64,000 bases of DNA from Dictyostelium discoideum. Lineage: Eukaryota. The stretch lies in NCBI GenBank assembly GCA_000004695.1, contig CM000152.2, positions 640,001-704,000 of the forward strand, in the 5' to 3' direction. Positions within the stretch are counted from its first letter, which is position 1. Each line of letters starts with the position of its first letter. The notes below the pieces were generated by a model. The model made no database searches, had not been told where the DNA came from, and worked only from the letters and a program-made list of their open reading frames with translations. Below, in pieces: positions 6,348 to 25,493 of the stretch. A program made the translations under genes and the position numbers.

Positions 6348-7252
6348 AAAAAAAAAAAAAAAAAAATGATTAAAGAAAGAAAAAAAAAAAAAAAACATCA
6401 ATAAGTTTTATGTATAGTATTTATACAATTATTTATGGTGTTTATTTATTTTTTTGGTATGAAAAAAAAAAACTGATTAAAATTTATGGAAAAAAAAAAA
6501 AAATAAAAAAAAAAAAAAATAAAAAAAAGGTATTCTTTTTTTTTTTTTTTTATCTTTTTTTTTTTTTGTATTTCTTTTTTAAAAAAAATAAAAAAAATAA
6601 AAAATATTTAAAAAATTTAAAAAGAAAATAAACAATCTTTTTACCAATTGTTCATATATATGTGTTTAAAAGTATTTTATTTAAATTAAAATTAACATAA
6701 AAAAAAAAAAAGACTTAATCGCCAATATATTATTTTTTAACAATATTAAAAAAAGATATTCAATAATAATATATTTTGAAGTATTGTTTTGTAGTAATAA
6801 TCTTGTGATTTTAATTTTGTCACAATTGTTTTATTTCCAAAAAAATTTTAATTTTAACCAGTTTTTTCATTTAATAAAAGTCAAATGAAGTTCAAAATTT
6901 CCAGAATAATTAATTATTACTCAAAATCTCAAAATAAAATAAATAAATAAATATAAAAACAAAAAAAAAAAAAAAAAAAAAAAAAAATCAGATATTTTTT
7001 TTGGGAATACCACTGGTAACCTCGAAAAAAAAAAAAAAAAAAATTTTTTGATTTGTTGGAATAAAAATAAAATTAAAAATAAAAAAAAAAAAAATAAAAA
7101 AAAATACTAATTAAAAAAAAAAACAAATAAATCAAACAATAACTTCCTTTTATATAATTTTCAAATGTTAACATCATAATTGTTGATGGACACAGTAAAC
7201 CACTTAAAATTATTTGTTTTTTTTTGTTTTTTTTTTTATTTAATTTTTTAAT

Positions 7253-7296
<44 letters not shown>

Positions 7297-7785
7297 ATTT
7301 TTTTTTATTTTTTTTTTTATTTTTTTTTTTTTTCAGAAATTAATTTTTTTTTTTTTTTCACACAAAGGGTTGACACACCACATTTAATTGTAGATAGAAG
7401 AAGAAAAAAAAAAAAAAAAAAAAATCTTAGATAAACAATTATAATTTATATATAGGAAATTTATGTTTATATATTATAATAAAAAAAATAAATATCAATT
7501 ATAAATAACTAAAATAATATAAAATAATAATAATATTGCCACAGAATCTCATTTGGTCCCTAATAAATTCAATTTGGTCTAAAAGTATAAAAATACAAAA
7601 TTTTTTTTTTTTTTTTTAAAATAAAAAAAAAAAAAAAAATAAAAAAAAATAAAAAATATAAAATTGTAAAAATTATACAATTCTTTCTTTTTTTATTATC
7701 CTTAAAGGGTGATAATATAACAATTTAATAATATAATAATAATAATTATAATAAAAATAAGAAATAATAAATAATAAAAAATTTT

Positions 7786-7937: not shown

Positions 7938-8964
7938 ATGAATGGAAATAAAAAGATTATAAATCAAATCATTAGGAATGTTGTTCAACAAAACAGTATA
8001 CCCGATGGTACAATGCCAAGTGCAGAGGCATCTTTTGCACTAAATAAATATTTGGATGATCCAAATACTGTAGATTTAGGTATGTTTATACAATTACTAA
8101 TAATAATCATTTATTCTCTATATTATAAATTATTATATATTAATATATTGAATTAATTTTTTCAACTCTAAAATTTTAACACCACACATACATACACACA
8201 TACACACACACACACCACATATAATTAGTTTATATAAATTTAATAGAAAGAATTAGAAATGAAAGATCAAATTATGAACAGGTGTTATCAAGAATATTAA
8301 AATTAATAAAGAATAATATAGCAATACATCCACCTTCATGTCAGATATTACTAGATTTGGATAGTTTTTTCTTATTACTTTCGCCTACTTGTGGTTTATT
8401 GGTTCAAAAAACAATTACATATATAAGAGCACTCATTGCTAACCAAGTTAAACAAAACCCAAGTTATGATCACATAAAGAAAACTTTGGTTTTAAATAAT
8501 AATAATATAAATAATAATAGTTTAAATAATAGTCATGGTATTGAGCATAGGTATTTTTTATATTTATAAAATCTTCAAAAAAAAAAAAAAAAAATATTTT
8601 ACTTATATATTTTTAAAAATTTTATTTTTATTTATTAAAAGCAGTGGTCATAAAAAAACAAATAGTGGAAGTATTGGATTTTTAAGGTATAGAAGTCATT
8701 CAGCGTCAAATTCACAGGTTACCAATAGAGATGATTTTTCATTTCAACGTTCATCATTAGATCTAAGTAATATGTTAGCAACATCAATATCATCAACTAC
8801 ATCATCCAATTCATCCTCATCATCATCATCACCAGTTTCACAAAATGAATCACCTTTAAAAAATACCCTTTTAAGTAATAGTCAAAATAATAATCAAAAT
8901 CATATTAATAATCAAAATCAAAATCAAAATCAAAATCATTTATCTCCGACTTTATCGTCACATC

Positions 8965-9015
<51 letters not shown>

Positions 9016-9183
9016 GTAATAGCAATAGTAATAGTAATAATAATAATAATAATAACAATAACAATAATAATAGTAATATATCTGCGTCCATTAATAGTAA
9101 TAATAGTAATAATGAAACATTAGTATCATCTGTAATATCATCAAAAAATAATAATCATGTATCAAATATAAATAGCAATAGTA

Positions 9184-9234
<51 letters not shown>

Positions 9235-11110
9235 TTGAACAACAACAAAATTCTATATTAACTGGGTCAAATTTAAGTATTGTTGGACATCAGAATAATA
9301 ATGGATTAAGTAATAGTTCAAATCAGCTTGGAGGATCAAATAGTAATATATTAAAAGAAAGTACAAGTTCAGTTTCAAGTAGTGGTTCACCTAACTTTTT
9401 AGTTGATGGCTTTATAAGAGATTTAATGTCTATTAAAGCTTCTTCAAAATCTCAAATTAGTATGTAGTTTAATTTATTAATTCATTTATATTTTAAAATA
9501 TACCTAACATTTTTTTTTCTTTTAATAATAATTTTCTAGAAGCACAAAGTTTATTAACATATTCACCATTTGGTGGACTAAATAGTCAAAATGAGAATAG
9601 TCCAAAAGCAGTTAATAAGGATATATTTAAATGTCCAGATGATTCACAAAATCATTCAAGAATAAATATAGTTAGAGAATCTAAAAAGAAAGCGGAAAAG
9701 AAAGATCAAACCATTTATACATTTCGAAGAAGAAAACCAGCATTATTTCAATATAAATACTATAAGGATCAAGAGCCATTGAAAATCACTGAACAAGAGA
9801 TAACTCAAGTGGTTAGAGTTATCATTAATCCTGCAACACCACAAGATAGATCAATTGCAACCAAAATATTTATAAAGATCATTTTGGATATTTATTGTCG
9901 TGACGGTTTAGTCGTTCAAAGTTCAGAGAAATTGATTTCAAATTACTTTCATCAATTCATTTCAAGTGTAAATAGAGATACTCGTGCTCATACTTTTAAT
10001 ATTTTATTCAATTTATCAATTCATATTAATCTATATTCAGAATTAAGATTAGAAGATCATCAACAACAACAACAACACCACCACCACCACTCAAATAGTC
10101 AACAACATAATAATAATTTATCAATGATACAAGAATTACACGAGTCAATATTTAGAATAGTAATTGAAATGATTCAATATTTAGTTGATAATAAAGAAAA
10201 AGATGAAAGAACTTGGTCAGAATCATTAAGTTGTGTATTGTTTTTTATAACAGAAGAAGGTGTAGTTCTAAAGGATAAATTGTTCCAATTGAATTCTCAA
10301 ATGATTGCAGCTTTCTTATCAAATATTCAAGATCTAATGAGTGATAGCGTTAGAAGAGTATTAATTAGAATGTTGGCTACTTTTCTTTACAAAGACCCAA
10401 TGGGTAATCATATAAACAATCAAAATAATCTATTGTTTTTAAATGAAGAAGAATTTAATGCAGTTGGTGGTATTCAATTCATACTACAGTTATATACTAC
10501 CGTTAGATCAAGCGAAGCAAAGAATAACCTATTTGTAATTATATTTGATTATGTCCTTCATACAGCTTTAAAGACTCAAACCATTGTTGAAGCTCAAATT
10601 GTAAATGAATCACCATTGCTATTAGAACTCTTTAGAAGATCTGATGCCTCTCATTATTTCACTCAAATTTTCAAATGTATACCAGAACATGGTTTTATTT
10701 CAAAGTTTTTTCTCTACACTTCTGAAGAGGCTAAACATGATTCCTCCTATAGTTACGAAGATTTAATCATAAAGTTCACAATGAAACTTGAAGAATTTGC
10801 AACTCGTTATCAAAGTGTTGATTCAAATTTCGAAAGATTAATAATCGATTGTCAAGAGATACCAGAGAAATATCAACAAATTCTCACTGATTCCTTATCA
10901 AATGAAGATGATGAACAATCATTATTCAACGCTGAAAATTGGTTATTCTTACTCTTAAAGAGAGTTTTAATTGATAAAGATGAAAATTATTCACATTTTA
11001 ATTTCTCCATTAATATTTACTTTCAATTGGCTTCAAATTTAAGTACAAGATTAAGAAGAATTTATATTTCAATAACTGAAAGATTATTATTATTATCAAA
11101 ATTTAGAGTA

Positions 11111-11153
<43 letters not shown>

Positions 11154-11817
11154 AAATTAAAAAGTATTAATTAAATATTTTATTATATATCAACTATAGT
11201 TGTCAATAAATGAAACTAAAACAAGTGAAATATTTGATATGTTTAATGAAAGATTTACAAGATTAATTTCTCAAGGTGAAAAATCAGAAAACAATCTTAT
11301 GTATATAGTTGATATTTTATTTGATATGATTTACAAGAGAGCAGGTACAGGTTTATTAAGATCGAAAGAGTCGGTACCAGATACAAATTATTCATTGTTT
11401 TTAACGAATCAATTCGTGGTATCCCTATCACTTTTGAAATTATTTAATATCAATATCATTCAGTATCTATTCAACAATATTCAACACAGTGAAAATACTA
11501 AAGAGCAAAGACTATTCTTGTTACACATTCTAATTCAACGTTGTAAAGATAGTGAAGATTTATTAAAAGTTGGTGGTATTGGATTTTTTAAGAATCTATT
11601 ATCGGATCTTTCAACTCCAATCGCTTACCATTCAAGTTACTTTTTATTGACCCAATTGGAAAATGATTCACCCGAACAATATCGTTCTATCTTGACTCGT
11701 TTACTTCAAAAAGCAAGAGATAACAATAATGAAAATTTACTTTCAAATCCATTTTTCCAAGTTCAAGGTATTGTTGAAATGTCACTTCAACAACCAATTC
11801 AAAATAAAAATTAAATA
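7938..11817 (+). CDS. uncharacterized low-complexity (poly-N/S/Q/H) protein with C-terminal helical (ARM/HEAT-like) region; 5 exons approx join(7938..8079,8247..8550,8641..9459,9540..11111,11200..11817)
   Basis: Five ORF-track segments (7938, 8282, 8535, 9779 and 11200) connect in frame through canonical GTATGT/GTATTT/GTAAGT donors and ...TAG/AAG/TAG acceptors. I verified the phases as 1, 2, 1 and 0. I recognise no named domain. The C-terminal part (GIQFILQLY..., VGGIGFFKNLLSDL...) looks alpha-helical repeat-like. Confidence 0.55.
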
Positions 11818-11889
11818 ATAATTAAAAAATAAATAAATAAAAAAAAAAAAAATAAAAAAATTTAAGCAAACAAATAAAAAAAAAAAAAA

Positions 11890-11953
11890 CCTATGATAAT
11901 AGTAAAAAATATCTATATTAATTAATATAGATATTTTTTACTATTATCATAGG
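11890..11953. other. 64-bp perfect palindrome (inverted repeat with no spacer) in the convergent 3' intergenic region
   Basis: cctatgataatagtaaaaaatatctatattaat|taatatagatattttttactattatcatagg equals its own reverse complement. It sits 73 bp downstream of the plus-strand gene stop at 11817 and at the 3' edge of the minus-strand PKS fragment. Confidence 0.9.
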
Positions 11954-11959
11954 TAATGA

Positions 11960-14900
11960 TAATTTATATAGATTATATGCTCCAACAACTTTTGGATCAT
12001 ATGTTCTATCTAAATGATTCTTATCAATATCTAATATTGGTGAATCAATATTCATAAATTGTTGCCAAATGAATAATTGATGCAACTGGTTCAACATTTT
12101 TATTATTATTGTAGAATGTATTGATTGAATTATTTAAATCATCATAGTTTGAATTTCTATTTTGGTTTATTAGTTTTTTAACTTCCCATTTACAACTTGA
12201 TTTTGAAATTATTATAATATCTTTTAAATGTTTTGGTGCATGATTAATAATCCATTTTGTAATAATTGGTGAAATACTAGTTTGACCAGTAATTAATAAA
12301 GTTGATGGTAATGAATTAATTTCATAATTTGTTTTGATAATGGTCTTATTAATTGTAGAGTTTGAAATAAATTGATCAAAGTTTTGGAAATCAACAACAA
12401 TTTTACCAATGTGTTTTCTATCATTAACATAATAAATTGCTTTTTTTGTTTTTTCGACATAAAATTCTGAAATTGGGATCATTTCTAATTTACTATTGCC
12501 AATATCTCTAAATTATTCTGATAAAATATTAGTAATTCTTGGATTATGTTTACAAACTCTTTCAATATCTATTGTATTATAACCAACATTAAATTTGAAA
12601 TTATTTAAATCAACATTATCATTATCAATTAATTGAGTCATTGATAAACATGAAATTCTTCCAATTTCACTCAATGCATCAAAATTATATTTCAAAAATT
12701 CAACTGATAAAGTATCTAAAATCAAATCAACACCCTTTCCATTAATTTCTTTAATTCTATCACTAAACCTTTTTGATAGTGAACTTGTTTCAGTTGAAAG
12801 TATTTTTGTAATAATATCACCATAATTTTCTAATAGATATTGTTTCTTTTCTTTTGATCCACCAATTGTTACAAAAACATTACCACAATGTTCTTTAGAT
12901 TTTAATAATTTCAATGCAGCCAAACCAACACCGCCACATGCCGAATGGATTAATACTGATTCATCCTTTTCCAATCTACCTAAATGATATAGTGAATAAT
13001 ATGAACTCATATATACCATTGGAATTGATGCTGGTTCAACAAATGATATATTGGTTGGTTTATGAACGAACTAAACGAATGTGGAATTAAACTGGCTACT
13101 TGCTCGTTTAATTTAAATTTGGTAACTTTAGAACCAACTTTTGTTATGATACCAGAACATTCCAAACCTAAAGGTGGATTATAGATATTTCTTTTTGCAA
13201 AAATTTCTTGTGGTAATAATGCTCTCGTTGTTAAATCAGTTCTAAAATAAAATTCAACTTTGTATTTATTTTTTGAACTTGGGAATAAATTTGTTTGTAA
13301 TTTATATCTATTTCCTTCAGTGATAAAAACTGGTAATTTTTTAAATTATGAATTAATATATCTTTTCGTTTGAAAATGTTCGATATATTATCAATGTATC
13401 CACTTCCTGGGAATAAAACTTTTCCTTTAACTCTATGATCATTTAAAAATTTATACATTTTATTTGATGTATCAATTATTGAATGATAAGTTTCGACACC
13501 ATTTATTGATTTTCTACCTTAAATATCAACTGATGGACCTTCTAAAATTTTCTTTTTACTTTTTAATGGATATGACCAATGGATTTCATCATCCCATTGA
13601 TATCTTGGTAGCGATGATGTTGAATCCTTATAGAATTTATCATTTAGTTCTTTTTGATTAAATTGACTTTCAAAATTTAAATTTAAACCAAATCTATTCA
13701 ACGACATGATTGTTGAATTAAAAGAATCAATTTGAGAAGACATCTTCTTATTTAAACTTGTCAAAATTAATGGTTTCAAATTTTTATCTGATGGGATTGA
13801 TTTTTTAATATAATATGCTAATGTTGGAGTTGGTGCTATCTCAATAATAACTGGGTTTTTAAATGATGAATCTTGTTGGTTATCTAAATATTCAAATATT
13901 GATTTAATTGCCTTATTGAATTGTACAGGATTTCTAATATAATTATAAATGTAATCAACATTCATTTGTGATTTTTCAGTTAATTGATCACCATAATGAG
14001 TTGAGAATAATACCTTCATTGGTTTATTTGCATATTTCATATTTATTAAATCTGGGTTATAGAAACCATCTTTAATAATTTCTTGTTTTGATGAATGGAA
14101 TGCAGTGAGTGAACTTAATAATGAAGAGAATATATTATTATTTTGTAAAATAGTTGACAATGATTTTAATTCATTTTCATCACCTGAAACTACGATTGAA
14201 TCTTCAGAATTAAAACATGAAATTTCTAAATTCGGATAACTATTTGAATATTTATTGATTCCTTTTCTCTTAAACCAATTGATAACATTCTACCCATCCT
14301 ACAGTTTTATTTTGAAGCATTGCTCTATAGTAAGAAATGGTGCATGCAGTTTCCAAATCAATAATATTTGAGCAATATGCGGCTGCAACTTCACCAAAGG
14401 AATGACCTAAAATAATTGATGGTTCAATACCCCAACTTTAATATAATTCAACTATTGAAATTTGTAAAAAAAAGAGATATGATTGTGCATTTATTGGTTA
14501 TTAATTTCAATACTATTTGCTGATAATGAATTAACATGTTGGAATACAGAATATTTAAAATGATTTGGTAACATTTTATCAACTTTTATTAATGTGTTTC
14601 TATATAATTCATTATTTTCATATAATTCATTATGCATACCAATATATTGAGGTCCTGCAAAAACAAATATGATTGATGTTTGTTTAACTGGTTTTGAAAT
14701 CTGAAATTGTTGATGGAGATAAAGTTATTGATTTTTCAATTTCATTTAAATCATTCCAATTATTTACCGATACAATATTACGAGCACCAGAAAATATTGT
14801 TTTTGATAAACAATGCTTTTTAACAAAATCTTTAAATTTCATTTTTCCAGAACATGAACCAATATTTTCTTTAATTGTATTTAAATATCTATCTAAAGAA

Positions 14901-15345
14901 TTTATTGAATTTGATGAAAATGGGATTAAATAATTTCTTTCACATTTTCACTTTTTATCTTTTTCAATAAATCTTGGAGGTTCTTCTAAAATTAAATGAA
15001 CATATGATCCAGACATACCAAAATTATTAATTCCAATTGCAACTGGTATTTTTAAATTGTTTGGAAAATCTTCTAATTCTGTTTGAACTTTTAAATTCCA
15101 TTCATCAATTTTAATTTTTGGATTGATTCTTTCAAAATGAATGTTTGGAATGAATTTTTTATATTTTAAACTTAAACAAACTTTAATAAATGAACCAACA
15201 CCACTTGCTGCTTCCATATGGCCAATGTTGGTTTTAACTGAACCAATTCTTAATGGATTTGATTTTGAATGATGATCTTTAAAAACCATTGAAACAGATT
15301 CTACCTCGGTTGGATCACCAGTTGGAGTACCATAATCCTATAATA
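11960..15345 (-). pseudogene. type I polyketide synthase fragment (C-terminal half of KS, then AT, DH, ER, KR-like); disrupted and 5'-truncated
   Basis: Reading the minus strand from high to low coordinates gives five domain segments. The KS segment is DYGTPTGDPTEVES...GSVKTNIGHMEAASG (15345 to 14948). The AT segment contains the active-site GHSFGE (about 14400) and IIEIAPTPTLAYYIKK. The DH segment has LNDHRVKGKVLFPGSGYID, an HxxxGxxxxP motif (about 13400). The ER segment has LIHSACGGVGLAALKLL (12960). The last segment is a degenerate KR-like stretch, LLITGQTSISP (12300). These segments lie in different frames separated by stops. An in-frame TAA at 13516-13518 sits just upstream of the DH motif. 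No KS N-terminal half or ACP is present, and upstream of 15345 the sequence is AT-rich non-coding. Confidence 0.65.
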
Positions 15346-15827
15346 AATTTTAATTTTAATAATATATATTTTATTAATTTTTAAATCATCTAAAAAAAAA
15401 AGAAAAAAAAAAAATTGTTGAAAAAAAAAAAAAAAAAAAGATAAAAATAACCCCACCACCACTTTATTAAAATATGAATATTTTTTTGTGGGATTTGAAA
15501 CCACAAATCGTAAAATTACATATATTTTTTATTTGGTTTGACACATGGTGTCTAAAATGAATTCAAATGAAAATATTATTTTAAATAAGAAAATATCATT
15601 AAATTTTAAAAAAATACTAAAATTTAATTGGTTTTTTTTTCAATATAAATTTGTTTTTTATTTTATTTTATTAAAATTAATTAATATTACAACAATGTGT
15701 ATAATCTATTGTTTTTTCAGACATTTGTCGTTACGTAATTTTTTTTTTTTTTTTATTTATTGTATTTTATTTTATTTTATTTAATTTTATTTTATTTTAT
15801 TTTATTTTATTTATTTTAGAGTTTTTC

Positions 15828-15858
<31 letters not shown>

Positions 15859-15950
15859 TAAAGTTTTAGTATTGAATTGTTACAAGAAATAATTTCTATC
15901 AAATAAAAAGAAATTTTAATTAATAACTTTTTATTTTAAAATTATTATTA

Positions 15951-18900
15951 TTAAGGAGAAGAATCGGCTCGATCTTTTAGAATTAAATTTAATAAAGAAT
16001 ATGAAGATGTTAAAGTTTTTCTATTTTTTCTCTTTTTATAAATAACAACCAAGGCTATAACTATTATTAAAATACCAGCTGGAGTTCCTATTGACAATGA
16101 AAGTATTAATGCTAAATGGTTTGGTCTATTATATTTTCCTCTGTCATCATAAAATGTTGGCTTGATTGGGAAAAATGAAAAATCATATTCATATCTCTGA
16201 TTTTCAATTGATTGTTCAATATATTCATTATTCAATTCTTTATTTATAGCATAATTATTATTATTAGGTATGATTTGATCTAATTGGAAATTAAAATTAA
16301 AAGTAAATGATTTAATTTCATGAGGTTTAATTTGAATAGTTTCAATTGTTTTGTTGTTTTCACCTTTATTCTCACCATCAATAATATTATTTGTTCCATT
16401 ATTTGAGAAAATAATTGATGATGGTTTTTCATTTATAAATGAATATTCTGATTCACCACATTTGACTGGGAATTTTTTATTTATTCTTGTTGAATATTCT
16501 AATTATTATTTTATTTTATTTTTTTTTAAAAAAAAAGTTAGTAAAAATTCTAATAAATAGAAAATAATAATTTTATAATGTACATACTATCAATTAAATT
16601 ATTTTTTGTTAATTTTAAAAAAGATAAACCAGTTTCAATAAAGTTTGATATTTCTAATTCGTTAAATAATGTTGATTTATCGGTATCAGTAGTAGATTGA
16701 GTATTTGAATCAACTTCATGAATATTGAATAATCTTAAACCGACTGTATTGTTTTTTAATGTTAATAATGATTGTAAATGAATATTTGAAGGTAATTGAT
16801 TTGATAATGGTGAATATTTTAATAAATAACCAGTTTGATTATTGTGTTTTTTGACAAACATAATTGGTTGATTTGTAATATGTAAACTTATTCTTTTTTC
16901 ATTTTGTAATTGATTATTAACCAAATCCATATTAAAGTATAATTTAGCATCACTTCTTCCAATATCTTTACTTGGCCAATTTACTCCTTTCCAATCATCA
17001 GTATCCATAGTTCTATGAATCATAATTTCCATTTCGCCATCTGATGGTGATGTTGCGCCAACTGATCTATCTACATAAACTGTATATTGATGATTATTAT
17101 TTTCTGAGGTTTCTTTTAATTTTATATAACCTAAAACTGGGTAATAATTTTGATTGACAGTTCTATCATGATTGTAAATTCTTTTTCTAGATTCTAAACC
17201 ATTATCAGTATAAAATATATCATCATTTTCAAGATCTTTTACTTTATAATTGATTGTTGTTTCTCTATTCATATCACCGTTAATTGAATAACCAGTTTCA
17301 ATGTAATTCTCTGTGATTAATGATTTGCTATTACTATTATCGATTTCATTGTTTTTATAAATTCTTTGAACTACAATCGATGTTACATTGCAACCATCAT
17401 CTACACCATATAACATTGTTAATTGAGATACTAATGGGCCATCGTGGTAGATGAATTTATCAGGGTTCTCTAAGAATCCGTGTTTTTTACCACCTTTAAC
17501 ATTGAAAATGTATGGACCACTCTTTTTAGTTGAATATTGATGGAATGTTTGTTCGATTGTTTTAATTTCATTTGAATTTTTATCAGTTATTTTACTTATT
17601 AAACCATTTGATTCGAATTCTACTTTGAATCTATTATTATTAAAATTAATTTCATTTCCTTTTTTCAATAGTTTTGGTTTTGATAAAATGGTATTTGGTT
17701 TTGAATCTTCATTACTAGAAATACTTAGATAATAAGTATTTAAACCTAATGGTGGTAAATTAATAATTGCAAATACAATATAATTATTTTCAATTGATTG
17801 ACAATTTGAATCATCTTGAATTGGTATTATTTGAATTTGAATTGTTTTATTTGATATAGCTTCAACCAATTGAATTGATTCTAATAATTGATTATCATTT
17901 TTATTAACTTTTATTCTAAATGAAACATGTTGGTTAACTTCCCAACCTAATGTATTGTGGAATACTAATGAATATTGATTATTTATTTCATTTGATAAAT
18001 CTATTACATTTTCAAAATTGAATGGTTCATTTGTACTGTCTGTATTTTCATTATTATTATTATCTTTATTTAATAAATATTCTAAAGAATTTGAAATGAT
18101 ATTATAATTTGAAATTCTTGATTTTTGTAATCTTTGGAAATTATCATTTAAAACAAATGATCTTGAAGTACCTGTAACAATATCATGATGTTGAACCAAT
18201 GCTATTGTATTTCTATTTTCATTTAATTGATTTGATAACGTTTGTAAATTATTAATATCGATTTGATTATTTGAATTTTCGCCAATTGCTAAAGTGTATA
18301 ATATATCTGATGATTTTTGTAAAAGACTTGATTCTCTAATCAATCTTTTTAACAATGGTCTTGTTGTATAATATCCTGTCCAATATTCTAAATCACCAGT
18401 TGAATATGGAAAGAAATCTTTATTATATAATGATAATGTTGATGAAAAACCTGTCTTTAAATTCTCCTCTACAGTTTTACCAAGTTTATTCATAAATTCG
18501 TCCTCTAAAGCAATGAAATATTCATCTATTGTTGCATATTTAATTTCTTTTATATTATACTTTTCTTTATTATCTTGAATAACTTTTAACCATTCTTTTG
18601 AAACTGAAAATTCATTTTTTGCATTTGAATATCTGAAATCATCACCCAATGGAATCATTAGTATGCTTGATTCTCTGGTATTTGATAAATCTTTAATATA
18701 TTTAGTGAATCCTTTAACACGCTCTTCTAATGAAAAATCTTTCTTTGGGTCAATATGCTTTGGATAATCATAATGAACATTTAATGTGGAAACTAACATT
18801 TGTGATTGTTCTCCTAATGATTCTGAACCTTTCCATATGAATTCCATTTCTTTGGCTGATTTCATATAAGATTTAACATCATCTGAAACACGATTAATAA

Positions 18901-19738
18901 TTAATCCTTTTATACCCATACTTGAAAAAATGGTTGGTGTTGATGATGAATATCCAAATGGATCGATTTGCCATGCATATTCTATTGTATAGTTAAGTGT
19001 ATCTTTTAACCATTGATGGCCTTGTGTCATTTGTGTTATAACATCATCAATTGTTGCTGTTGCTTCATCATTTTGTACCCATCCACCACTAATAAATGAT
19101 AGTTGTTTATTATTTATTAAATTTCTAACAATTTCTCTTTGATTTTCATTTCGGTCATTCCACCACCTACTAAAAAATCCACTGTGAGTGTGTAAAATAT
19201 AAAAAAAAGGAATAAAAAAAAAAATGGAAAAATAAAAAAAAGAAAAAGGGTGGTTAGTGGGAATAAATAAAAAAAAAATAATAATAATAATAAAGAAGTT
19301 GGAAAATATAAAAACCATACATTTCTACCCAATTAAATTTCTTTTCTTTATCTAAATTTAATTCATTCACAATACCTGATAAAATATATTGAACAACATG
19401 ATTATAATACCACTGTATTTAAAATAATTGTTAGAAAAGAAAATAAAAAAATGACTAATAATTAAAACTAAAAAAAACTCAATACAAACGTCATAATCTT
19501 GTAACCAACCACTATCACAATGAGAATGGGGTATTAAAAATATAGATAATTTTTCATCTTTTAAATCTCCATTTAATTGGAATATCTTTTTTAAACTTTG
19601 AGAATTATTATTATAATTTACTATTTCAAAATTTTCATTATAAATATTGATAATAAAAGTTGATAACAAAATCCATACTCCAATAACAAATATAATTTTA
19701 ATTAATTTGGTTTTATTCATTTCTTTTATTTTTAACAT
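15951..19738 (-). CDS. GH38 alpha-mannosidase (lysosomal/class II type) with C-terminal transmembrane anchor, copy A; 4 exons approx join(15951..16498,16588..19181,19321..19412,19490..19738)
   Basis: Exon 1 is MLKIKEMNKT (signal) followed by FLIPHSHCDSGWLQDYD, the GH38 HxHxDxGW metal-site motif. Exon 2 is WYYNHVVQYILSGIVNELNLDKEKKFNWVE. The large exon runs GFFSRWWNDRNENQREIV...ISGGWVQNDEA...LVQHHDIVTGTSR.... The last exon is ...NNEYIEQSIENQRYEYDF... and ends in the TM helix LILSLSIGTPAGILIIVIALVVIYKKRKNRK. Donors are GTTTGT, GTATGG and GTATGT. The total of 3483 nt is divisible by 3. Confidence 0.8.
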
Positions 19739-20401: not shown

Positions 20402-22587
20402 TTAAGGAGAATAATCAGTTTGGTCTTCTTGTTGAATTAAATTTGATGAAGAATTTGAAGATGTTAAAGTTTTTCTATTTTTTCTCTTTTTATAAGTAAC
20501 AACCAAGGCTATAACTATTATTAAAATACCAGCTGGAATTCCTATTGACAATGAAAGTATTAATGCTAAATGGTTTGGTCTATTATATTTTCCTCTGTCA
20601 TCATAAAATGTTGGCTTGATTGGGAAAAATGAAAAATCATATTCATATCTCTGATTTTCAATTGATTGTTCAATATATTCATTATTCAATTCTTTATTTA
20701 TAGCATACTTATTATTATTATTATTATTATTAGGTATGATTTGATCTAATTGGAAATTAAAATTAAAAGTAAATGATTTAATTTCATGAGGTTTAATTTG
20801 AATAGTTTCAATTGTTTTGTTGTTTTCACCTTTATTCTCACCATCAATAATATTATTTGTTCCATTATTTGAGAAAATAATTGATGATGGTTTTTCATTT
20901 ATAAATGAATATTCTGATTCACCACATTTGATTGGAAATTTTTTATTTATTCTTGTTGAAAATTCTAATTATTATTTTATTAATTTTTTTTAAAAAAAAA
21001 AAAAAGTTAGTTAAATTCTAAATATATATATATAATATTGTACATACTATCAATTAAATTATTTTTTGTTAATTTTAAAAAAGATAAACCAGTTTCAATA
21101 AAGTTTGATATTTCTAATTCGTTAAATAATGTTGATTTATCGGTATCAGTAGTAGATTGAGTATTTGAATCAACTTCATGAATATTGAATAATCTTAAAC
21201 CGACTGTATTGTTTTTTAATGTTAATAATGATTGTAAATGAATATTTGAAGGTAATTGATTTGATAATGGTGAATATTTTAATAAATAACCAGTTTGATT
21301 ATTGTGTTTTTTGACAAACATAATTGGTTGATTTGTAATATGTAAACTTATTCTTTTTTCATTTTGTAATTGATTATTAACCAAATCCATATTAAAGTAT
21401 AATTTAGCATCACTTCTTCCAATGTCTTTACTTGGCCAATTTACTCCTTTCCAATCATCAGTATCCATAGTTCTATGAATCATAATTTCCATTTCGCCAT
21501 CTGATGGTGATGTTGCGCCAACTGACCTATCTACATAAACTGTATATTGATGATTATTATTTTCTGAGGTTTCTTTTAATTTTATATAACCTAAAACTGG
21601 GTAATAATTTTGATTGACGCTTCTATCATGATTGTAAATTCTTTTTCTAGATTCTAAACCATTATCAGTATAAAATATATCATCATTTTCAAGATCTTTT
21701 ACTTTATAATTGATTGTTGTTTCTCTATTCATATCACCGTTAATTGAATAACCAGTTTCAATGTAATTCTCTGTGATTAATGATTTGCTATTACTATTAT
21801 TGATTTCATTATTATTTTTATAAATTCTTTGAACTACAATCGATGTTACATTACAATAATCATCTACACCATATAACATTGTTAATTGAGATACTAATGG
21901 GCCATCGTGGTAGATGAATTTATCAGGGTTCTCTAAGAATCCGTGTTTTTTACCACCTTTAACATTGAAAATGTATGGACCACTCTTTTTAGTTGAATAT
22001 TGATGGAATGTTTGTTCGATTGTTTTAATTTCATTTGAATTTTTATCAGTTATTTTACTTATTAAACCATTTGATTCGAATTCTACTTTGAATCTATTAT
22101 TATTAAAATTAATTTCATTTCCTTTTTTCAATAATTTTGGTTTTGATAAATAGGTGAAATTTGATTTTGAATCTTCGCTATTAGCAATACTTAAATAATA
22201 AGTATTTAAACCTAATGGTGGTAAATTAATAATTGCAAATACAATATAATTATTTTCAATTGATTGACAATTTGAATCATCTTGAATTGGTATTATTTGA
22301 ATTTGAATTGTTTTATTTGATATAGCTTCAACCAATTGAATTGATTCTAATAATTGATTATCATTTTTATTAACTTTTATTCTAAATGAAACATGTTGGT
22401 TAACTTCCCAACCTAATGTATTGTGGAATACTAATGAATATTGATTATTTGATTCATTTGATAAATCTATTGCATTTTCAAAATTGAATGGTTCACTTTT
22501 ATTTACAGTATTATTATTATTATTACTACTACCACTACCACTACTACTGCTACTACCTGTTGTACTAATACTATTTGTATTTTTAAG

Positions 22588-22642
<55 letters not shown>

Positions 22643-24359
22643 TTATTATTATTATTATTTGTTTTGTTATTACTTTTATTTAATAAATATTCTAAAGAAT
22701 TTGAAATGATATTATAATTTGAAATTCTTGATTTTTGTAATCTTTGGAAATTATCATTTAAAACAAATGATCTTGAAGTACCTGTAACAATATCATGATG
22801 TTGAACCAATGCTATTGTATTTCTATTTTCATTTAATTGATTTGATAACGTTTGTAAATTATTAATATCGATTTGATTATTTGAATTTTCGCCAATTGCT
22901 AAAGTGTATAATATATCTGATGATTTTTGTAAAAGACTTGATTCTCTAATCAATCTTTTTAACAATGGTCTTGTTGTATAATATCCTGTCCAATATTCTA
23001 AATTACCAGTTGAATATGGAAAGAAATCTTTATTATATAATGACAATGCTGATACCTCATCATCACCATCACTAAAAGTTTCAGTGTAAACATTTTGTTT
23101 TCTACTTTTACCAAATTTATTATTTCTCAAGAAACTATCCTCCAAAGCAATGAAATATTCATCTAAAGTTGCATATTTAATTTCTTTGATATTGTAATAT
23201 TCTTTATTATCTTGTAAAGCTTTTACCCACTCTTTTGAAACTGAAAATTCAGTTTTTGCATTTGAATATCTGAAATCATCACCTAATGGAATCATTAGTA
23301 TGTTTGACTCTCTAGTTTTTGATAAATCATTGAGATATTTAGTGAATCCTTTGATACGATCATTTAATGAAAAATCTTTCTTTGGGTCAATATGTTTTGG
23401 ATAATCATAATGGATATTTAATGTGGAAACTAACATTTGTGATTGTTCTCCTAATGATTCTGAACCTTTCCATATGAATTCCATTTCTTTGACTGATTTC
23501 ATATAAGATTTAACATCATTTGAAACACGATTAATAACTAATCCTTTTATACCCATACTTGAAAAAATGGTTGGTGTTGATGATGAATATCCAAATGGAT
23601 CGATTTGCCATGCATACTCTACTGTATAGTTAAGTGTATCTTTTAACCATTGATGGCCTTGTGTCATTTGTGTTATAACATCATCAATTGTTGCTGTTGC
23701 TTCATCATTTTGTACCCATCCACCACTAATAAATGATAATTGTTTATTATTTATTAAATTTCTAACAATTTCTTTTTGAATTTCATTTTGGTCATTCCAC
23801 CACCTACTAAAAAATCCACTGTGTGTGAAATATAAAATAAAAAAATGAAAAAAAAAAAAAAAAAAATGAAAAAGGTGGTTAGTGGGAAAATGAAAAAAAA
23901 AAAAAAAAAAAAAAAGTAAAAATATTTAATGAAACGTTACATTTCTACCCAATTAAATTTCTTTTCTTTATCTAAATTTAATTCATTAACAACACCAGAT
24001 AAAATATATTGAACAATATTATAATAATATCCCTATCAAAAAAAAAAAAAAAAAATATGTTAAAAAATTTTAAAAAAAAGAAATAATTTATTAAAATTTA
24101 TATATTTAATACAAACATCATAATCTTGTAACCAACCACCATCGCAATGAGAATGAGGTATTAAAAATACAGATAATTTTTTGTCATCCCCGTTTTCTTT
24201 GTTATTAATTTGATTTATTGTTTTTAAACTTCGTTTTTCGAATTTATTGATTCCAAAAGTTGATTTATAATCGTAATTATTGTATATTATTAAAAAAGTG
24301 AATACCAAAATCCAAATACCAAAAACCCATATAATTTTAACAAATTTACTACTTTCCAT
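20402..24359 (-). CDS. GH38 alpha-mannosidase with C-terminal transmembrane anchor, copy B (tandem paralog); 4 exons approx join(20402..20964,21048..23818,23941..24032,24117..24359)
   Basis: The exon/intron architecture and splice phases match copy A, and long stretches are near-identical at the nucleotide level. It differs by a poly-N/S insertion (about 22490-22680, NNNNNNNNKNNNN...SSSSSGSGSS) and by a variant block FLRNNKFGKSRKQNVYTETFSDGDDEV. The N-terminal exon has HSHCDGGWLQDYD. The total of 3669 nt is divisible by 3. Confidence 0.8.
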
Positions 24360-24783: not shown

Positions 24784-24819
<36 letters not shown>

Positions 24820-25493
24820 ATTTTTTTTTTTTTTTTTTTTTTTTTAAACAATGACTTGGTTTTATTTATTTTTATTATTATTATTTCAGTATATAAAAAT
24901 ACACAAAATGATATAAATTATATAAAAAATGAATGTAAACATTTTGTTTTTTTAATTTTTTTTTTAATCAAAATTTTATTTTTAATTCATTTTTGTAATT
25001 GTTTTTTTTTTTTCAAAGTGGGGAAATATAAAAAAATAGCTGAATTGGTATATTTTTTTTTATAAAAACCATTTTAAATAAAATCAAATAATTTGGTTGT
25101 TTTTTTTTTTTTTTCCTATATAAGAAATAGTATGGGAAGATTTTCTGAGAAACCACCACCAATAAAGATGAAGATGGTGAAGATGATTATTATTTTGGTG
25201 GTGATAATAGTAAAAATAGTGATGATAATGATAATGATGATGATAATGATATTATTTAATAATCAATTTAAATCTAATAAATAATATTTAAATTTATTTA
25301 TTTTCACCACAAATAAATCAAGACAATTTTTTTTTTTTTTTTATAAAAAATAATAGTGACCTAAAAATAATGAAAAAAAATCTATAAATATATATTTTTA
25401 TTTTATTAAACCTTTTTTTTATTTTATTTTTAATTTTTTGTTTTTTAATTTTTTTTATTTAAAAATGATATTATCTTCTTTTAAAATGCCAAG

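Follow-up and report, generated by a model that had tools for sequence, protein, structure and literature searches.

The stretch of DNA considered here (the window, 64,000 nucleotides in all) comes from chromosome 3 of Dictyostelium discoideum (GenBank GCA_000004695.1, contig CM000152.2, positions 640,001 to 704,000; AX4 in what follows). It is extremely AT-rich, with a G+C content of about 22%, and contains at chr3:651,954-655,337, on the minus strand (window 11954-15337), the remains of a gene for a polyketide synthase (PKS). The relic is flanked by the 3' ends of manE and of a convergent gene, DDB_G0278301. The published coordinates of these two genes (chr3:655,951-659,720 and chr3:647,938-651,814, respectively; PMC3188802, supplement 2) are those of the window (15,951-19,720 and 7,938-11,814) plus exactly 640,000, and the open reading frame adjoining the relic specifies a GH38 alpha-mannosidase, whose 90%-identity cluster includes manE (DDB_G0278651, Q1ZXI8).

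A polyketide synthase relic and its intact orthologue

Translation of the minus strand, with Pfam and tblastn comparisons, revealed the end of a KS domain, an AT domain, the start of a DH domain, an ER domain and the start of a KR domain between 11954 and 15337. The preliminary description of this DNA had listed segments of the same five domains in canonical order on this strand, and in this it was right. tblastn with three PKS proteins of Dictyostelium or Cavenderia, and later with the true orthologue (below), confined PKS matches within the 64-kb window to 11948-15331; no DH C-terminus was found anywhere in it, nor, as had already been claimed, a KS N-terminus or an ACP.

What did the working gene look like? 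A word-indexed protein search with the concatenated conceptual translation gave matches of at most 38% identity, all to proteins of fewer than 2000 residues, and did not return the orthologue. This was located by an exhaustive HMMER search of 1.84 billion cluster representatives with a 256-residue piece of the AT region: the best match, P0145 (ACTFIZ_006979, KAM9982459.1; 2275 residues, 90% identity), belongs to an organism designated 'Dictyostelium cf. discoideum' (locus L007). The runner-up was 44% identical over the AT region, and no close paralogue was found among these representatives, the nearest non-orthologous protein being the one at 44%. A second 'D. cf. discoideum' isolate (locus L008) has the same gene (P0291, 2278 residues; ACTFIY_005255, KAM9989227.1). 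The two genomes are presumably those of isolates M4B and S6B, described as possible cryptic sister species of D. discoideum (PMC12745789).

The order of genes at the slot is the same in both intact genomes: two tandem mannosidases are followed by the PKS, which lies on their strand, and then by the convergent neighbour and a peptidase S28 gene. Pfam assigns P0145 a complete set of domains (KS-N, residues 12-258; KS-C, 266-386; linker, 389-475; AT, 540-841; DH, 950-1193; ER, 1590-1899; KR, 1930-2114; ACP, 2200-2274). The gene has three exons separated by two short 5' introns, and in both isolates codons 149-2275 form a single uninterrupted exon. Comparison of the two intact genes with each other gave a dS of 0.23 and an omega of 0.13-0.16, and because of this low omega we consider them to be under purifying selection. 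The window aligns with L007 in two long blocks, 15332-13227 with 11137-13257 (92.7% DNA identity) and 13225-11953 with 15014-16349 (91.5%). Relic and orthologue are alike in slot, orientation, flanking genes and domain order, with about 92% identity in DNA and 90% in protein (the AT piece), but one is a complete open gene under purifying selection, and the other has seven frameshifts and four stops. We also note that ACTFIZ has about 1.3-1.5 kb of additional AT-rich spacer between mannosidase and PKS (L007 7848-9378), containing no open reading frame of 60 or more codons, which is absent from ACTFIY (where the spacer is 876 bp) and from the window.

When the relic is aligned with this closest intact gene, as the preliminary description had proposed, the damage can be listed in full (Table 1). 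There are four large deletions and ten small indels, of which seven shift the frame, and the reading frame of the orthologue is interrupted by four premature stops. The earlier account had noted one of the stops, which is real, and had spoken of at least five frames; one strand has only three, among which the relic moves at its seven frameshifts. Missing altogether are residues 1-319, approximately 1027-1611, and 2058-2275. Deletion A1 took exon 1 along with the 5' portion of the following intron, and its edges are fuzzy, lying in T-rich DNA. Deletion A2 (about 700 bp) extends from the start of exon 2 into KS-C and has an ATGG microhomology, the ancestral GTTTATGG and TGTCATGG having become GATTATGG joined to TACT. 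Deletion B (1756 bp; L007 13258-15013), which has a clean junction, begins within DH, whose C-terminal half is lost, and continues through the central region into the start of ER. In deletion C (682 bp; L007 16350-17031) the C-terminus of KR went, and with it the ACP, the stop codon and the beginning of the 3' untranslated region. When the small indels were polarised by means of both intact orthologues, all ten proved to be specific to the window, with none between the two intact genes; the window branch holds all 14 length changes.

Table 1. Features of the PKS relic and its junctions (window positions; residue numbers are those of the intact orthologue P0145, 2275 residues)
Feature	Position	Strand	Remarks
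PKS upstream (promoter / 5' intergenic) remnant	15518-15776	-	70% identity to L007 9379-9643, 5' of the intact ATG
3' end of PKS intron 1, with AG acceptor	15339-15382	-	exon 1 and 5' part of intron deleted
5' deletion junction	15330-15338	-	exon 2 start (GTTTATGG) joined to KS C-terminal region (TGTCATGG, then TACT)
KS C-terminal end and KS-AT linker	14687-15337	-	residues ~320-532; TGA 14948-14950 inside
AT domain and AT-DH linker	~13522-14724	-	residues ~532-926; five indels and TAA 14438-14440
DH N-terminal part	13227-13518	-	residues 928-1026; contains HRVKGKVLFPGSGYID; -4 frameshift at ~13340
Internal deletion junction	13225-13227	-	residues ~1027-1611 gone; 1-2 nt microhomology
ER domain	~12395-13225	-	residues ~1612-1899; contains LIHSACGGVGLAAL; -28 at 13068, -3 at 12532, TAA 12513-12515
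KR N-terminal two-thirds	11954-~12302	-	residues ~1930-2057; -36 at 12154, +4 at 12049
Native 3'-flank arm of palindrome	11889-11921		ancestral PKS 3' untranslated region / intergenic DNA; single copy in relatives
Derived arm, inverted copy of flank	11922-11954		at 3' deletion junction, in place of L007 16350-17031
Frameshifting indels (seven)	+1 14695, -1 14500, -1 14295, -4 14260, -4 ~13340, -28 13068, +4 12049	-	from orthologue alignment
In-frame indels (three)	-6 14657, -3 12532, -36 12154	-	from orthologue alignment
Premature stop TGA	14950-14948	-	orthologue Gln447
Premature stop TAA	14440-14438	-	orthologue Lys619
Premature stop TAA, in frame	13521-13519	-	orthologue Leu927 (TTA)
Premature stop TAA	12515-12513	-	orthologue Leu1859

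The surviving pieces are readily recognised. At the 5' end, window 15382-15330 matches L007 10376-10428 (90.6%, E=6e-15), which takes in the last 47 nt of intron 1 and the start of exon 2. The KS and linker piece (Ketoacyl-synt_C, PF02801, E=1e-19; KAsynt_C_assoc, PF16197, E=4.6e-10) is 91% identical in amino acids to residues 320-532 of P0145. The N-terminal half of KS is absent, as the preliminary description had it, but much less than half of the domain is left, namely residues 320-386 of Ketoacyl-synt_C: the catalytic Cys (TACSSS region) and the His of HGTGT have been deleted, and only the region of the second His (NIGH) is kept. The AT region (Acyl_transf_1, PF00698, E=1e-6 and 7e-12), from which the 256-residue piece matching residues 678-926 was taken, has the same GHSFGE motif (about 14409-14392) as the orthologue, yet this motif lies on an island of 55 codons between a stop and a frameshift. 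The HxxxGxxxxP motif of DH is kept as HRVKGKVLFPG (PKS_DH_N, PF21089, E=1.3e-5), and the stop that had been noticed upstream of its His is real, though at 13519-13521 and not 13516-13518, the His codon (13437-13435) being the 28th after it rather than the 18th. The PS-DH part of the domain (residues 1052-1193 of P0145) fell within the 1756-bp deletion, leaving the double-hotdog fold incomplete. ER was recognised by ADH_zinc_N (PF00107, E=1.6e-7) and ADH_N (PF08240, E=2.6e-3). KR, a domain of residues 1930-2114, is cut off at residue 2057, so that the region of the catalytic Tyr (which we take to lie in the YTSAN motif of the lost C-terminal part) and everything downstream are gone, and its NADPH-binding Gly motif has changed from TGQTGIS in the orthologue to TGQTSIS. 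The ACP that a working enzyme requires, with its phosphopantetheine-attachment Ser (DSL), is missing from the window. As a putative functional iterative type I PKS the segment failed every test bar the retention of isolated motifs, and with the Cys and first His of KS, the C-terminal half of DH, the catalytic region of KR and the ACP all gone, it is predicted to encode nothing functional.

The locus is also present in a second D. discoideum assembly (GCA_054883475.1; locus L006), one of those that PMC12745789 obtained by combining Nanopore with Illumina data, and probably that of the laboratory strain AX2-214. Between 24808 and 7617 its identity to the window is 100%, with every stop, every frameshift and the palindrome described below falling inside this span. 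Because an independent assembly is base-identical across the relic, the lesions are not sequencing errors. Over a wider interval (window 26000-6000) the two assemblies differ at nine sites, all in the homopolymer tracts at 24808-24822 and 6358-7617. These differences (at 24808-24822, 7617, 7426, 7320, 7293, 6987 and 6358) are changes in the length of poly-A or poly-T together with one substitution; they are either true slippage polymorphisms between laboratory strains or errors in homopolymer length.

We are therefore confident that the segment is a unitary pseudogene, the wreck, in its original place, of a highly reducing iterative type I PKS (KS-AT-DH-ER-KR-ACP). Two hallmarks of such a pseudogene are present: an intact syntenic orthologue at about 92% DNA identity, and real, lineage-specific lesions. 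That the gene died in place follows from the collinearity with the intact gene that is still seen upstream, at the 3' end of intron 1 and in the genes on either side; the preliminary description, in calling the element a dead, truncated paralogue, was right about its condition and, very probably, wrong about its origin, since this is the orthologous gene and not a duplicated copy. In the ancestor of the D. discoideum clade this PKS would have filled the slot between manE and DDB_G0278301, and after selection had been lost in the AX4 lineage it would have been broken down by the four large deletions, at least one of them via microhomology, the ten small indels, mostly of the slippage type, and the four nonsense substitutions.

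The slot in other relatives and the time of gene death

In the genomes of two tropical isolates labelled D. discoideum (ACTFIW and ACTFIR; L001 and L002), in which the flanking genes are about 2-3% diverged from those of AX4, the slot is only about 220 bp long. Its homology to the intact gene begins, at the same boundary in both, at L007 16861 (residue ~2227), and the remaining tail includes '...LKSYGIDSLLIVQLKNY...', the phosphopantetheine site of the ACP. Both lack the upstream remnant of Table 1, their homology to the window ending at 15791 and 15789, respectively. D. citrinum (L003) has a longer, stop-ridden tail that starts from residue ~2152. Nothing recognisable of the PKS was found in the slot of D. 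firmibasis or D. dimigraforme. In D. firmibasis, homology to the locus of the intact gene sets in (L004 13769 onward) some 15 nt short of the PKS stop codon (L007 16991), a faint hint that the gene was once there too, though a match as short as this is not evidence.

Neighbour-joining trees of the two flanking genes put AX4, ACTFIW and ACTFIR, ACTFIY and ACTFIZ into one clade, with D. citrinum outside it, followed by D. dimigraforme and D. firmibasis, in agreement with the clades of PMC12745789. [quoted passage not shown] The deletions of AX4 and of ACTFIW/ACTFIR are mutually exclusive, each retaining what the other has lost. If the AX4 gene died as late as we estimate, its inactivation would also have been independent of the loss in ACTFIW/ACTFIR.

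When did it die? The estimate comes from 1111 comparable codons and three-taxon parsimony, a crude method applied to small counts. Between window and orthologue, dS was 0.19-0.23 and omega 0.16-0.19. Parsimony assigned 45 synonymous and 40 non-synonymous changes to the window branch, against 62 and 31 to ACTFIZ and 54 and 14 to ACTFIY, so that the non-synonymous share is 40/85 on the window branch compared with 45/161 on the intact branches (Fisher p=0.003). The corresponding branch omegas are about 0.22 for the window and 0.125 and 0.065 for the intact branches. There is no excess of substitutions in the relic (114, compared with 125 and 81 on the intact branches). Under a two-phase model, in which omega rose from 0.065-0.125 in the working gene to 1 once function had ceased, some 11-17% of the window branch would have been free of constraint, i.e. 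the death of the gene would be recent. Mutation-accumulation lines of D. discoideum have a very low rate of base substitution and frequent slippage and indels, and the pattern on the window branch agrees with this.

The palindrome at the 3' junction

At its 3' end the relic abuts a perfect palindrome of 66 nt (11889-11954; 33-nt arms with no spacer, centred at 11921/11922). The preliminary description had pointed to this palindrome, which is indeed beyond chance expectation: no other in the window has arms of more than 13 nt, and 200 Markov simulations produced arms of 18 nt at most. As a hairpin it has a dG of -27 kcal/mol (z = -13.8). In all seven relatives, homology to the window picks up again at about 11922-11940, and for this reason we take the outer arm to be native and the arm next to the relic to be a new inverted copy of it; this derived arm was not found in L001-L005, L007 or L008. 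It is joined straight to the KR breakpoint ('...AAATTATCATTAC' followed by 'CTATGATAATAG...'), with possible microhomology of 1-3 nt (C or ACC). The single copy of the flank in the relatives reads 'GATATAGATATTTTTT(T)ATTATCATAGG', and a short imperfect inverted repeat, 'AAAAAAACTATATC', lies 11-33 nt upstream, where it could have nucleated a hairpin.

The palindrome is thus best read as the scar of deletion C. During repair or replication of a break running from the middle of KR to the 3' untranslated region, 33 nt of the adjacent flank would have been copied in inverted orientation and then joined to the KR breakpoint. This might have come about by an intrastrand or sister-strand template switch, with fold-back priming on the flank and a return to the original template, or else through a broken end capped by a hairpin, in which a nick 33 nt away from the tip was followed by fill-in synthesis. 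Comparable events at break sites include quasipalindrome correction (by fold-back or template switching) and snap-back synthesis in alternative end joining, and P-nucleotide-like additions arise when hairpin-capped ends are opened asymmetrically. The AX4 junction resembles templated inverted insertions at sites of break repair in that the inverted copy adjoins the flank from which it was templated, coincides with a deletion junction, is not present in outgroups, and has a pre-existing short imperfect inverted repeat beside it. It differs from P-nucleotides and typical templated inserts in the length of the 33-nt arm; both routes, as judged from sequence only, would fit. Because the palindrome is unique to this lineage, we do not regard it as an independent functional element.

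Putting the relatives, the timing and the palindrome together, we lean, by a modest degree of preference, towards the view that the slot records repeated, independent and recent losses of one PKS in the D. discoideum complex, that the AX4 copy has been dead for about the last one-seventh of its branch, and that its 3' junction is a rare, cleanly polarised example of a 33-nt palindrome templated by fold-back or by a hairpin.

Alternatives, meaning and neighbourhood

Could the relic instead be a dispersed or duplicated copy of some other pks gene, inserted beside manE? There are about 40 other pks genes in D. discoideum (PMC3188802, supplement 1), and five relatives lack the DNA corresponding to window 15790-11922, so that at first it resembled a window-specific insertion. 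(An insertion of 3.9 kb was in fact considered in the first synteny comparison, and was ruled out by the ACP tails of L001-L003 and the intact genes of L007 and L008.) Nevertheless, such a copy is very improbable: in two sister lineages it is precisely this slot that holds the intact orthologue, between collinear flanks and with the counterparts of the promoter and intron-1 remnants; relatives that lack the fragment keep the ACP tail of the same gene in the same place; and no close paralogue was found, the next best protein being 44% identical. A processed or dispersed duplicate pseudogene had also been considered, and was ruled out by the promoter remnant, the 3' end of intron 1, the collinear flanks and the failure to find a close paralogue. 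The preliminary description had envisaged two ways in which the gene might be rescued, either through stops and frameshifts that were assembly or sequencing errors, or through introns that joined the frames, and a working AX4 gene of either kind now seems scarcely conceivable. Several of the small indels do lie in A/T runs, which are error-prone, and old gene models (P0294, P0141) bridged the pieces with predicted introns, but the independent assembly is identical at each lesion and offers no rescue, and the orthologous region is one exon in both intact genes. Since every frame change is a window-specific indel within what is a single exon of the working gene, real introns are disposed of as an explanation; moreover, the DNA that is absent from the 64-kb window (KS, about 1.1 kb; DH-ER, 1.76 kb; KR-ACP, 0.68 kb) could not be restored by splicing, however perfect.

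A quite different possibility is that the dead gene was put to a new use, whether as an extension of the manE transcript at its 3' end (by way of the intron-1 acceptor), as a regulatory or non-coding RNA, or, in the case of the palindrome, as a terminator or structural element between the convergent genes. The AG acceptor of intron 1 is still there (15339/15338), two independent annotation efforts arrived at manE-KS fusion models (P0141, P0139), and the palindrome, with its strong fold, lies about 75 nt downstream of the stop codon of DDB_G0278301. On the other hand, the manE orthologues of all the relatives stop at the C-terminal membrane anchor and have no PKS extension, frameshifts or stops recur every few hundred bases in the pieces that are kept, in the closest relatives the segment is deleted in its entirety and nothing has taken its place, and the palindrome is absent from every relative. 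Co-option of this sort is, in our view, unlikely.

The interpretation of the segment as a unitary pseudogene, with its recent death and its palindromic scar, has to contend with several points that weigh against parts of it. The second assembly probably comes from a laboratory strain that, like AX4, descends from NC4, in which case its identity speaks for that descent only. The omega of 0.22 on the window branch is far from 1, so either the branch was functional for most of its length or the estimate, from 85 changes, is a noisy one. Gene predictors have built chimeric manE-KS models (P0139, P0141), making read-through RNA possible. Finally, the mechanism put forward for the palindrome is read from structure alone, with microhomology of just 1-3 nt at the joint between KR and the derived arm.

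Pseudogenes of PKS type were reportedly counted in a 2007 census, as five probable cases among 45 D. discoideum PKS genes, and they are an already described class in AX4, of which the relic is an ordinary and probably recently dead member. It shares with the pks family of D. discoideum the iterative type I, FAS-like multidomain architecture and the AT-rich genome, as a non-functional member, but it has no close paralogue there, its best non-orthologous match being 44% identical. Forty D. discoideum PKS sequences were used in the study that described lineage-specific gain and loss of these genes (PMC3188802); since PKS pseudogenes are to be expected from such rapid lineage-specific birth and death in dictyostelids, the present finding is a minor one taken alone. 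In the literature and supplements searched, we found no dictyBase identifiers around manE and no named pks pseudogene at this position; the relic is nevertheless part of the curated AX4 reference genome, and older gene models had been drawn over it. The assemblies of 2025 allow details to be added (the intact orthologue, the recurrent losses, the polarised palindromic junction) that do not alter the nature of the finding.

The intact 'D. cf. discoideum' orthologue shows which PKS is missing from AX4, and its metabolite has presumably been lost as well. The lesions, in which slippage-type indels and deletions are many relative to substitutions and which include one ATGG junction and one palindromic junction, may serve as a small, well-polarised sample of neutral DNA decay in this genome. 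If the repeated losses are true, the slot would amount to a natural experiment, showing how genes for secondary metabolites turn over and how deletions arise when the genome is extremely AT-rich, and the product of the orthologue might distinguish cryptic species.

There is also a practical use in annotation, as the relic has repeatedly yielded spurious models, in the 2025 assembly and in old UniParc entries alike: manE-KS fusions, and 'hypothetical proteins' of 145, 280 and 415 residues. The models over the relic in L006 (10001-17676; window 11954-19720) are ACTFIT_010039 (1649 residues; manE, KS-C and AT), ACTFIT_010038 (280 residues) and ACTFIT_010037 (145 residues). The old UniParc models are one of 1221 residues (manE-KS, spliced onto the retained acceptor of pks intron 1 at 15339/15338) and one of 415 residues (DH/ER/KR). 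Gene models running through the relic are probably annotation artefacts.

In the neighbourhood of the relic, the tandem mannosidase genes manE (15951-19720) and manD (approximately 20405-24359) are 96% identical over about 2.1 kb at their 3' ends, including a 387-bp stretch at 98.7%, and only 89% identical over about 1 kb at their 5' ends; this unevenness looks like gene conversion between the tandem copies. A search of the whole window for repeats found low-complexity A/T families only. A T-loop-like string at about 15490 had suggested a tRNA-targeted retroelement, which was ruled out when ARAGORN found no tRNA genes in the window. Finally, we draw attention to a gene model of 732 residues in D. 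citrinum, some 15 kb from the slot (L003 482-3933, minus strand), which has an ACP_SdgA_C match and a weak match to a PKS linker (33% identity to residues 451-582 of P0145). The other genomes have at that position a gene of 583-605 residues with only a faint Chlam_PMP match, and the D. citrinum model may represent another PKS-derived piece.

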